A stretch of DNA of 64,000 nt from assembly GCF_003334765.1 (NCBI RefSeq), contig NZ_QOWT01000021.1; one strand, given 5' to 3'. This DNA is from Escherichia coli (lineage in GTDB: Bacteria; Pseudomonadota; Gammaproteobacteria; Enterobacterales; Enterobacteriaceae). Within the stretch, counting starts at the first letter, position 1, and every line of letters starts with the position of its first letter. A program made the position numbers and the translations under genes. The notes beneath the pieces were generated by a model. The model saw nothing but the letters and a program-made list of their open reading frames with translations. It did no database searches and was not told the DNA's origin. Positions 60,438 through 61,053 of this stretch are shown one piece after another.

Positions 60438-61053
60438 GATTTACTAAAGGCTGCAACTGCTTCGCCATCCAGTCGGCAATAAACGGCTGGGCGTCGCGGT
60501 TGGGATGAATACCGTCATCCTGCATCCATTGTGGCTTGAGGTAGACCTCTTCCATAAAAAAGGGCAGCAGCGGAACATCAAACTCTTTGGCGAGTTTGGG
60601 GTAAATGGCGCTAAAGGCTTCATTATAACGGCGACCATAGTTTGCAGGCAGACGTATTTGCATTAACAATGGTTCAGCGTTGGCGGCTTTGACATCCTGC
60701 AAAATCTGGCGCAGCGTTTGCTCGGTTTGCTGTGGCTGAAAACCACGCAAACCGTCATTGCCGCCCAGTTCAACCAGCACCCAACGCGGCTGATGCTGTT
60801 TCAGCAGAGCCGGAAGGCGCGCCAGTCCTTGTTGCGAGGTGTCGCCGCTGATGCTGGCATTAACTACCGACGTTTTACTCTGCCACTTATCATTCAACAA
60901 GGCAGGCCAGGCCGCGCTGGCAGACATTCGATACCCGGCGCTCAGGCTATCACCCAGAATCAATAACGTGTCCGCTGCGGCGGCACGGAAGGTTAACAGG
61001 ACCAGGAACAGGAAGGGCAAATGCCAGCGGAAAACATTGTTGAAGTTCATCAT
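60427..61053 (-). CDS. tesA: Periplasmic acyl-CoA thioesterase I / protease I / lysophospholipase L1, SGNH hydrolase (208 aa)
   Basis: Start set at ATG 61051-61053 (MMNFNNVFRWHLPFLFLVL); GDSLS catalytic motif. Confidence 0.96.
   Translation of the reverse strand: MMNFNNVFRWHLPFLFLVLLTFRAAAADTLLILGDSLSAGYRMSASAAWPALLNDKWQSKTSVVNASISGDTSQQGLARLPALLKQHQPRWVLVELGGNDGLRGFQPQQTEQTLRQILQDVKAANAEPLLMQIRLPANYGRRYNEAFSAIYPKLAKEFDVPLLPFFMEEVYLKPQWMQDDGIHPNRDAQPFIADWMAKQLQPLVNHDS

Follow-up and report, generated by a model that had tools for sequence, protein, structure and literature searches.

A 33- or 30-nt head-to-head coding overlap between tesA and ybbA in Escherichia coli, with expression signals embedded in the partner genes

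The divergent genes tesA and ybbA of Escherichia coli share 33 (or 30) nt of coding sequence at their 5′ ends. This arrangement is very probably a true head-to-head overlap of two real genes, each of which carries expression signals of the other and whose RNAs are complementary in their 5′ parts. The shared nucleotides (61021–61053 of the 64,000-nt stretch of DNA that was analysed, here called the window) encode residues 1–11 of YbbA when read on the plus strand and, when read on the minus strand, residues 1–11 of the TesA signal peptide, its charged n-region. The features of the junction are the following:

61021–61707, plus strand: ybbA coding sequence, 228 aa (ORF list and RefSeq WP_001110573.1), the ABC ATPase of the YbbAP-TesA complex
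60427–61053, minus strand: tesA coding sequence, 208 aa when read from ATG 61053, of which 26 aa form the signal peptide, a periplasmic GDSL thioesterase/lysophospholipase
61021–61053, both strands: dual-coding head-to-head overlap, ybbA codons 1–11 (MPAENIVEVHH) antisense to tesA codons 11–1 (MMNFNNVFRWH)
61048–61050, minus strand: second ATG of tesA (M2), the RefSeq PGAP start in three of three E. coli records, giving 207 aa and a 30-nt overlap

The 33-bp overlap reported in the initial annotation is confirmed by the sequence, by the open reading frames, and by the coordinates of MG1655, in which tesA occupies 518363–518989 and ybbA 518957–519643 (published table, PMC7373196). The start at ATG 61053 (MMNFNN..., 208 aa) agrees with these coordinates, and the overlap measures 33 nt from this codon or 30 nt from ATG 61050, as in RefSeq. 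According to the ORF list, the open frame of tesA spans 60427–61083 on the minus strand and contains in-frame ATGs at 61083, 61053, and 61050 as well as a TTG at 61020. On the opposite strand, ATG 61021 is the first ATG/GTG/TTG of the ybbA frame past the upstream stop (sequence and ORF list), and no other ybbA start codon precedes the conserved N-terminal strand. Both frames are genuine protein genes, as RefSeq annotates TesA and YbbA and the two proteins are partners in a solved complex (PMC12646458). TesA has thousands of named homologs (thioesterase I, Pfam PF13472/PF00657). The window is DNA of the E. coli K-12 type. The 1.5 kb around the overlap are 100% identical to K-12 derivatives and are found in 5419 of 5426 complete E. 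coli genomes.

The antisense codon register of the overlap is exact. M1 and M2 of TesA lie opposite H11 and H10 of YbbA, and H11 of TesA lies opposite M1 of YbbA. None of the 99 possible single-base changes within the 33 nt is synonymous in both genes. The same in-register overlap of 30 or 33 nt is found in all 15 Enterobacterales loci (source window counted), which span Escherichia, Citrobacter, Enterobacter, Klebsiella, Superficieibacter, Rahnella, Acerihabitans, Photorhabdus, and Providencia.

The overlap carries the substitution pattern of a dual-coding sequence. Constraint was expressed as the mean pairwise diversity of third codon positions (for ybbA, in windows of 10 codons), across lineages that are not fully independent. 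In ybbA, this diversity is 0.132 in codons 2–11 and 0.531 in the rest of the gene, and the lowest of the 207 other windows still has 0.353. Inside the overlap, diversity is flat across codon positions 1, 2, and 3 of ybbA (0.18, 0.13, and 0.13); codons 12–21 average already 0.41, and the constraint stops at codon 11/12. In tesA, third positions show a diversity of 0.164 in codons 1–11 versus 0.54 elsewhere (186 other windows, minimum 0.39). The value leaps to 0.67 at codon 12, and synonymous diversity is back to normal directly beyond the ybbA ATG at 61021. The pattern does not extend beyond the overlap, and in each of the two genes it breaks off sharply at codon 11/12. Because the constraint begins and ends at the annotated starts, both of these starts are supported, and a longer TesA of 218 aa is excluded as a conserved protein. 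Selection on initiation regions near gene starts could also lower synonymous variation, but it would neither equalize the three codon positions nor make sharp edges at codon 11/12 in both genes. The flat pattern across positions 1, 2, and 3 supports the mutual constraint on both N termini that had been proposed from the sequence.

Other regions of low synonymous variation are present in both genes. In tesA, the lowest values outside of the overlap are found in codons 162–167 (60553–60570) and 190–196 (60466–60486), and the first of these dips coincides with a published RNase III duplex site (518494–518516, window 60558–60580; PMC7373196). At its other end, ybbA overlaps ybbP by the stop and start codons in ATGA (61704–61707). 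The last ybbA codons rank second in synonymous constraint among the windows of this gene, which is expected for translational coupling.

The following elements carry or may carry expression signals of the two genes, and the two on the minus strand are promoter candidates:

61010–61017, plus strand: ybbA Shine-Dalgarno (SD) sequence AGGAAGGG, anti-SD duplex of −7.0 kcal/mol
61093–61121, minus strand: candidate proximal tesA promoter inside ybbA codons 25–34, read from the sequence
61244–61249, minus strand: distal −10-like TATTAT inside ybbA, near the boundary of the tesA-side operon at window 61242, from a relaxed scan
60437–60453, plus strand: published start of the ybbAP operon at the tesA 3′ end (promoter 518389, window 60453), as Table S1e of PMC7373196 quotes it from Conway 2014

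The ribosome-binding region and the promoter of each gene would be placed within the reading frame of its partner. For the ribosome-binding sites, this expectation of the initial annotation is borne out. The ybbA SD sequence AGGAAGGG is antisense to the Pro-Phe-Leu codons (P13-F14-L15) that encode part of the hydrophobic core in the signal peptide of TesA, and the AGGAA core in front of the ybbA ATG is kept in 14 of the 15 Enterobacterales loci (the exception is Providencia, L016). The tesA leader is antisense to ybbA from codon 12 onward, and the annotated tesA ATGs, which lie in A/U-rich sequence, are preceded by only a weak SD (−3.2 kcal/mol). The promoters must sit inside the partner genes because there is no other DNA between tesA and ybbA, and the published maps agree, with the start of the ybbAP operon at window 60453, in the 3′ end of tesA, and the edge of the tesA-side transcript at 61084–61242, inside ybbA (PMC7373196, Table S1e).

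A strict sigma-70 consensus scan of 60700–61400 gave no promoter, including at the junction, and under relaxed settings the scan added no more than a weak candidate on the plus strand and the distal TATTAT. No known RNA family was found by Rfam in 60200–61500 at a permissive threshold. The candidate proximal tesA promoter combines a perfect −35 element, TTGACA (61121–61116), opposite Val32-Val33-Lys34 of YbbA, with a 17-nt spacer and a weak −10 element, GAGGAT (61098–61093), opposite Ile25-Leu26. Its predicted start near 61086 adjoins the edge of a published dsRNA at 519020 (window 61084). In 20 of 81 loci, among them Shewanella, Pseudoalteromonas, and Bowmanella, TTGACA stands at this Walker-A-anchored position, and 10 further loci match it in five of the six bases. 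The Val codon at this site is GTC in 11 of 16 lineage representatives, compared to 4.7 expected from the codon usage of their own genomes (simulated P ~6e-4, with lineages that are partly non-independent). Codons 30–34 of ybbA form the third most constrained synonymous window, behind the overlaps with tesA and ybbP. These features lead to the hypothesis that a proximal tesA promoter is embedded in ybbA codons. Since antisense reads over ybbA are very low (0.5 RPM; PMC7373196), the short tesA leader fits better than the leader of 189 nt to which the distal boundary would lead.

The distal TATTAT is located near the 5′ boundary of the tesA-side operon (window 61242), which PMC7373196 quotes from Conway et al., and is not conserved outside E. 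coli and E. albertii. On the plus strand, an extended −10-like sequence, TGaTTTACT (60437–60445), precedes the published start of the ybbAP operon, and a start at 60453 implies a leader of ~568 nt that is antisense to the whole of tesA. The motif TGnTT(T/A)ACT is kept in Enterobacteriaceae, where its conservation is confounded by that of the TesA C terminus.

At the same end of tesA, the annotated start of ybbO (ATG 60437, minus strand, MTHKATEILTGKV...) is not an ATG in two Citrobacter loci and one Enterobacter locus. The block around an internal ybbO ATG at 60398 (60396–60437, minus strand; MQKSVLITG..., preceded by GGTAAAG) is nearly invariant. The true ybbO start, as judged by this conservation, may be Met14, and the annotated 11-nt overlap of tesA and ybbO (60427–60437) would then vanish. 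Elsewhere in the window, RefSeq annotates a short frameshifted, N-terminally incomplete pseudogene fragment (55187–55284) in the ybaT-cueR interval, which overlaps the start of cueR by 4 nt.

Transcripts from both strands of the locus have been reported. The E. coli transcript coordinates given here are second-hand and come from the supplements of PMC7373196, which quote Conway 2014 and Lybecker 2014. In the entries quoted from Conway 2014, a plus-strand operon begins with a promoter at 518389 and ends at a terminator past ybbP, and the opposing operons overlap over 518389–519178 (window 60453–61242). The quoted Lybecker data contain immunoprecipitated dsRNA at 518895–519020 (window 60959–61084). 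A further start lies on the plus strand at 518985 (window 61049), antisense to the 5′ end of tesA (PMC7373196). In dsRNA captured with p19, tesA reaches 182–2396 RPM versus 9–86 RPM for the neighbors ybbO and ybbA; the dsRNA cluster S-52 covers 518684–518957, and five RNase III duplex sites are distributed along tesA (window 60558, 60747, 60924, 60930, and 60996) (PMC7373196). The position of these duplexes along tesA indicates that the plus strand is transcribed across the gene. In total RNA, antisense reads of tesA amount to 48.7 RPM versus 29.7 RPM for sense reads, whereas the antisense/sense ratio of its neighbors is 0.02–0.04 (PMC7373196). The strand column of Table S1c in PMC7373196 conflicts with Table S1b for ybbL, ybbN, and ybbA and is to be used with care. 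The sense and antisense values of Table S1c still look rightly assigned, as sense reads far exceed antisense reads for ybbL, ybbN, and ybbA.

From the sequence alone, the layout had been taken to imply tight or mutually exclusive transcription. This is not supported, because dsRNA can be captured only where both strands are transcribed, and the level of tesA sense reads does not change in two rnc mutants (wild type, 29.7 RPM; rnc-14, 27.2 RPM; rnc-38, 27.4 RPM; PMC7373196). With sense reads unchanged in the mutants, there is no sign of an RNase III-dependent repression of tesA. Polymerases that start at 60453 would have to cross tesA head-on, which, as for convergent promoters in general, makes some interference mechanistically plausible. 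The earlier reading is retained in its overlap, its N-terminal constraint, and its embedded signals, but not in its mutually exclusive transcription. ExcludonFinder (PMC12288877) lists tesA-ybbA among 16 divergent excludons of MG1655, a list restricted to pairs that occur in 50% or more of 58 RNA-seq samples, and proposes a coupling via antisense RNA or collision of RNA polymerases, which is plausible. According to the structure paper on YbbAP-TesA (PMC12646458), the two operons overlap in part and could be under common regulation.

The close spacing of the two genes is not limited to Enterobacterales. In a set of 80 gammaproteobacterial and betaproteobacterial loci (one genome per species, picked solely by TesA similarity), ybbA is divergent and adjacent to tesA in 80 of 80. 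The set includes Vibrio, Aeromonas, Shewanella, Pseudoalteromonas, Pseudomonas, Halomonas, Marinobacter, Dokdonella, and the betaproteobacterium Massilia. When the most downstream plausible ATG is used for each gene, 79 loci can be scored for the arrangement of their start codons:

Coding overlap: 38 of 79 loci
Abutting: 5 of 79 loci
Gap of at most 34 nt: 28 of 79 loci
Longer spacer: 8 of 79 loci

The spacer is thus at most 34 nt in ~90% of the 79 scorable loci, whereas the ten other divergent pairs within the 64-kb window have spacers of 69–378 bp. An exact CATG, in which the start codons overlap by 2 nt, is present in 18 loci and provides the sole possible tesA start in Vibrio. Pseudomonas has a gap of 10 nt in 11 of 16 loci and of 16 nt in two. 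In the Enterobacterales metagenome-assembled genome L018, the sole ATG start would give an overlap of 39 nt, and two downstream TTG candidates would give a gap. We infer from this pattern that a zero-spacer arrangement is ancestral and that the tesA start has moved 10–11 codons into ybbA in Enterobacterales. The Enterobacterales overlap would then be a version of an older back-to-back gammaproteobacterial layout with nearly no intergenic DNA and often a CATG.

The proposed mechanism starts from this compact layout. The two mRNAs would have complementary 5′ parts because their signals sit inside the partner frames. In E. coli, the ybbAP leader appears to be antisense to all of tesA, and the pair forms dsRNA that is cleaved by RNase III. 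The architecture may couple the expression of the YbbAP-TesA partners via antisense pairing or polymerase collision instead of being merely tolerated. A measurable regulatory role of the overlap architecture is conceivable but on balance doubtful, given the rnc-independent sense reads of tesA, the lineage-variable length of the overlap, and a strict consensus scan that finds no promoter. A more far-reaching version is unlikely. It holds that the near-zero spacer is an ancient, selected design found across Gammaproteobacteria and no peculiarity of E. coli, that the tesA promoter lies in conserved ybbA codons (−35 TTGACA opposite Val33-Lys34 and −10 xAGGAT opposite Ile25-Leu26), that the ybbAP leader runs antisense through tesA, and that the synthesis of transporter and hydrolase is hard-wired by obligatory antisense pairing or polymerase collision.

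A serious rival to these regulatory readings, with a little less than an even chance of being correct, is that the overlap is the neutral, frozen result of a compact locus, in which the tesA start drifted into ybbA and antisense transcription is tolerated noise. The size of the overlap or gap depends on the lineage (2 nt, 0 nt, a 10-nt gap, or a 20–39-nt overlap), so no particular overlap would have been selected. The neutral explanation also agrees with tesA sense RNA that is the same without RNase III, with the poor conservation of the distal −10 candidate (E. coli and E. albertii only), and with the dispensability of the cluster, which is deleted in the reduced-genome strain DGF-298. It is less easily reconciled with a near-zero spacer that recurs in very distant genera while ordinary divergent pairs are far wider apart. 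The enriched codon choice that keeps TTGACA on the tesA strand and the fact that tesA and ybbA encode partners of one complex (PMC12646458) likewise argue against neutrality.

The head-to-head overlap itself depends on the start codon of tesA. Divergent overlaps make up ~1% of all overlaps in a published survey, in which every case above 60 bp was a start-codon error and many divergent overlaps were mis-called (PMC2478687). That survey asks whether the starts that create an overlap are conserved in orthologs rather than extended in one genome. In all 15 Enterobacterales loci, the ybbA ATG and the first and/or second tesA ATG are conserved in register, and the TesA N terminus M(M)NFxxVFRWH is conserved throughout the order. 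Two Enterobacteriaceae loci (L008 and L009) keep only the M2 ATG and Photorhabdus keeps only the M1 ATG; ATG 61053 and/or ATG 61050 may therefore be used. Public gene calls for TesA orthologs range from 194 to 220 aa and include versions of 197 and 218 aa. Data on the mature protein cannot reveal the start because the signal peptide is cleaved off. The TRAINSPOTTER supplements contain no tesA or ybbA entry, and a literature search for tesA and ribosome profiling gave no match. Two further in-frame codons come into consideration:

61081–61083, minus strand: in-frame ATG 30 nt upstream of the tesA start, with the SD GGAG (61092–61089) 5 nt upstream, −8.4 kcal/mol, the strongest of the candidates
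61018–61020, minus strand: in-frame TTG at tesA L12 that abuts the ybbA ATG, an overlap-free alternative start, rejected

It is very improbable that tesA initiates mainly at ATG 61083, which would mean a 218-aa TesA with MLPLTDGLLK added to the signal peptide and an overlap of 63 nt. The strong GGAG, the open frame in E. coli, and the public 218-aa calls are in its favor. As a conserved start, it is rejected: the codon is confined to Enterobacteriaceae, and even there one Citrobacter (L005) has CTG in its place; in Rahnella L011 a stop cuts the position off, and L012–L015 and L036 lack the codon. The synonymous diversity of ybbA codons 12–21, which the longer form would also cover, lies far above that of the overlap (0.41 compared to 0.13), and the ATG would be located at or beyond the mRNA 5′ end if the proximal promoter is real. 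From its distribution, ATG 61083 would give at most an E. coli-specific or lineage-specific minor isoform.

That the overlap is an annotation artifact, with TTG 61020 as the true tesA start abutting the ybbA ATG, has a negligible probability: some gene callers do output the 197-aa version, starts abut or share only 2 nt in other Gammaproteobacteria, and published surveys trace many divergent overlaps to mis-called starts (PMC2478687), but the TTG is missing in 8 of 15 Enterobacterales loci (L006, L011–L016, and L036), has no SD (−0.9 kcal/mol), and would leave the signal peptide without its positively charged n-region (R9), and the tesA codons upstream of it (1–11) are under protein-coding constraint at exactly the codons where the wobble positions of ybbA are frozen.

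The overlap of tesA and ybbA is already known, since it is part of the reference annotation, and at least three datasets or papers that have been published contain it. What is added here by sequence comparison is an evolutionary test against a start-codon error, in which two alternative starts are rejected, and the finding that the near-zero spacer, often as CATG, is conserved across Gammaproteobacteria. A testable candidate promoter that may be written into ybbA codons is added as a hypothesis. Survey and candidate promoter extend the published record modestly. For genome annotation, the locus offers a clean positive control, as it passes a simple, reusable dual-coding test although surveys regard divergent overlaps with suspicion (PMC2478687). 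For the newly described YbbAP-TesA lipid-hydrolase system, it means that the genes of the ATPase and of its periplasmic partner are not independently expressible from the native locus. Since every single-base change in the 33 nt is non-synonymous in at least one frame, knock-outs, promoter swaps, and tags near either 5′ end affect both genes. If a coupling by zero-spacer design is true, the locus would hypothetically represent a compact antisense control between the subunits of one complex.

Among known systems, the annotated pair of E. coli K-12 (tesA, b0494, and ybbA, b0495) is the same locus with the same coordinates and the same 33-nt overlap. The object described in this annotation and in PMC12646458 is identical, and the published descriptions come without start-codon tests or conservation figures. 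Bidirectional promoters with symmetrical −10 elements (bioRxiv 10.1101/2020.01.31.928960) resemble tesA-ybbA in serving two opposed genes from one very short control region. In that class, the starts point apart from a shared element and the transcripts do not overlap, whereas the reported starts of tesA and ybbA face each other inside the partner genes and their transcripts overlap by hundreds of bases. A shared bidirectional promoter is ruled out by these facing transcript ends, by the lack of intergenic DNA, and by the result of the consensus scan at the junction.

Divergent excludons (PMC12288877 and PMC7373196) are the closer relatives, as they likewise consist of opposite-strand neighbors with 5′-overlapping transcripts and dsRNA that is processed by RNase III. 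By function, an excludon implies opposing expression, and tesA-ybbA is classed as one by published transcript overlap and dsRNA. The published excludon lists also include acrA-acrR (divergent, 25714–27696), hemH-aes (convergent with a 4-nt overlap, 39343–41261), and cueR-ybbJ (convergent and abutting, 55281–56147), all of which lie in the window. Most of the listed pairs overlap only in untranslated leaders over a true intergenic region, and acrA-acrR has a spacer of 141 bp; in tesA-ybbA, by contrast, the overlap extends into the coding sequences themselves.
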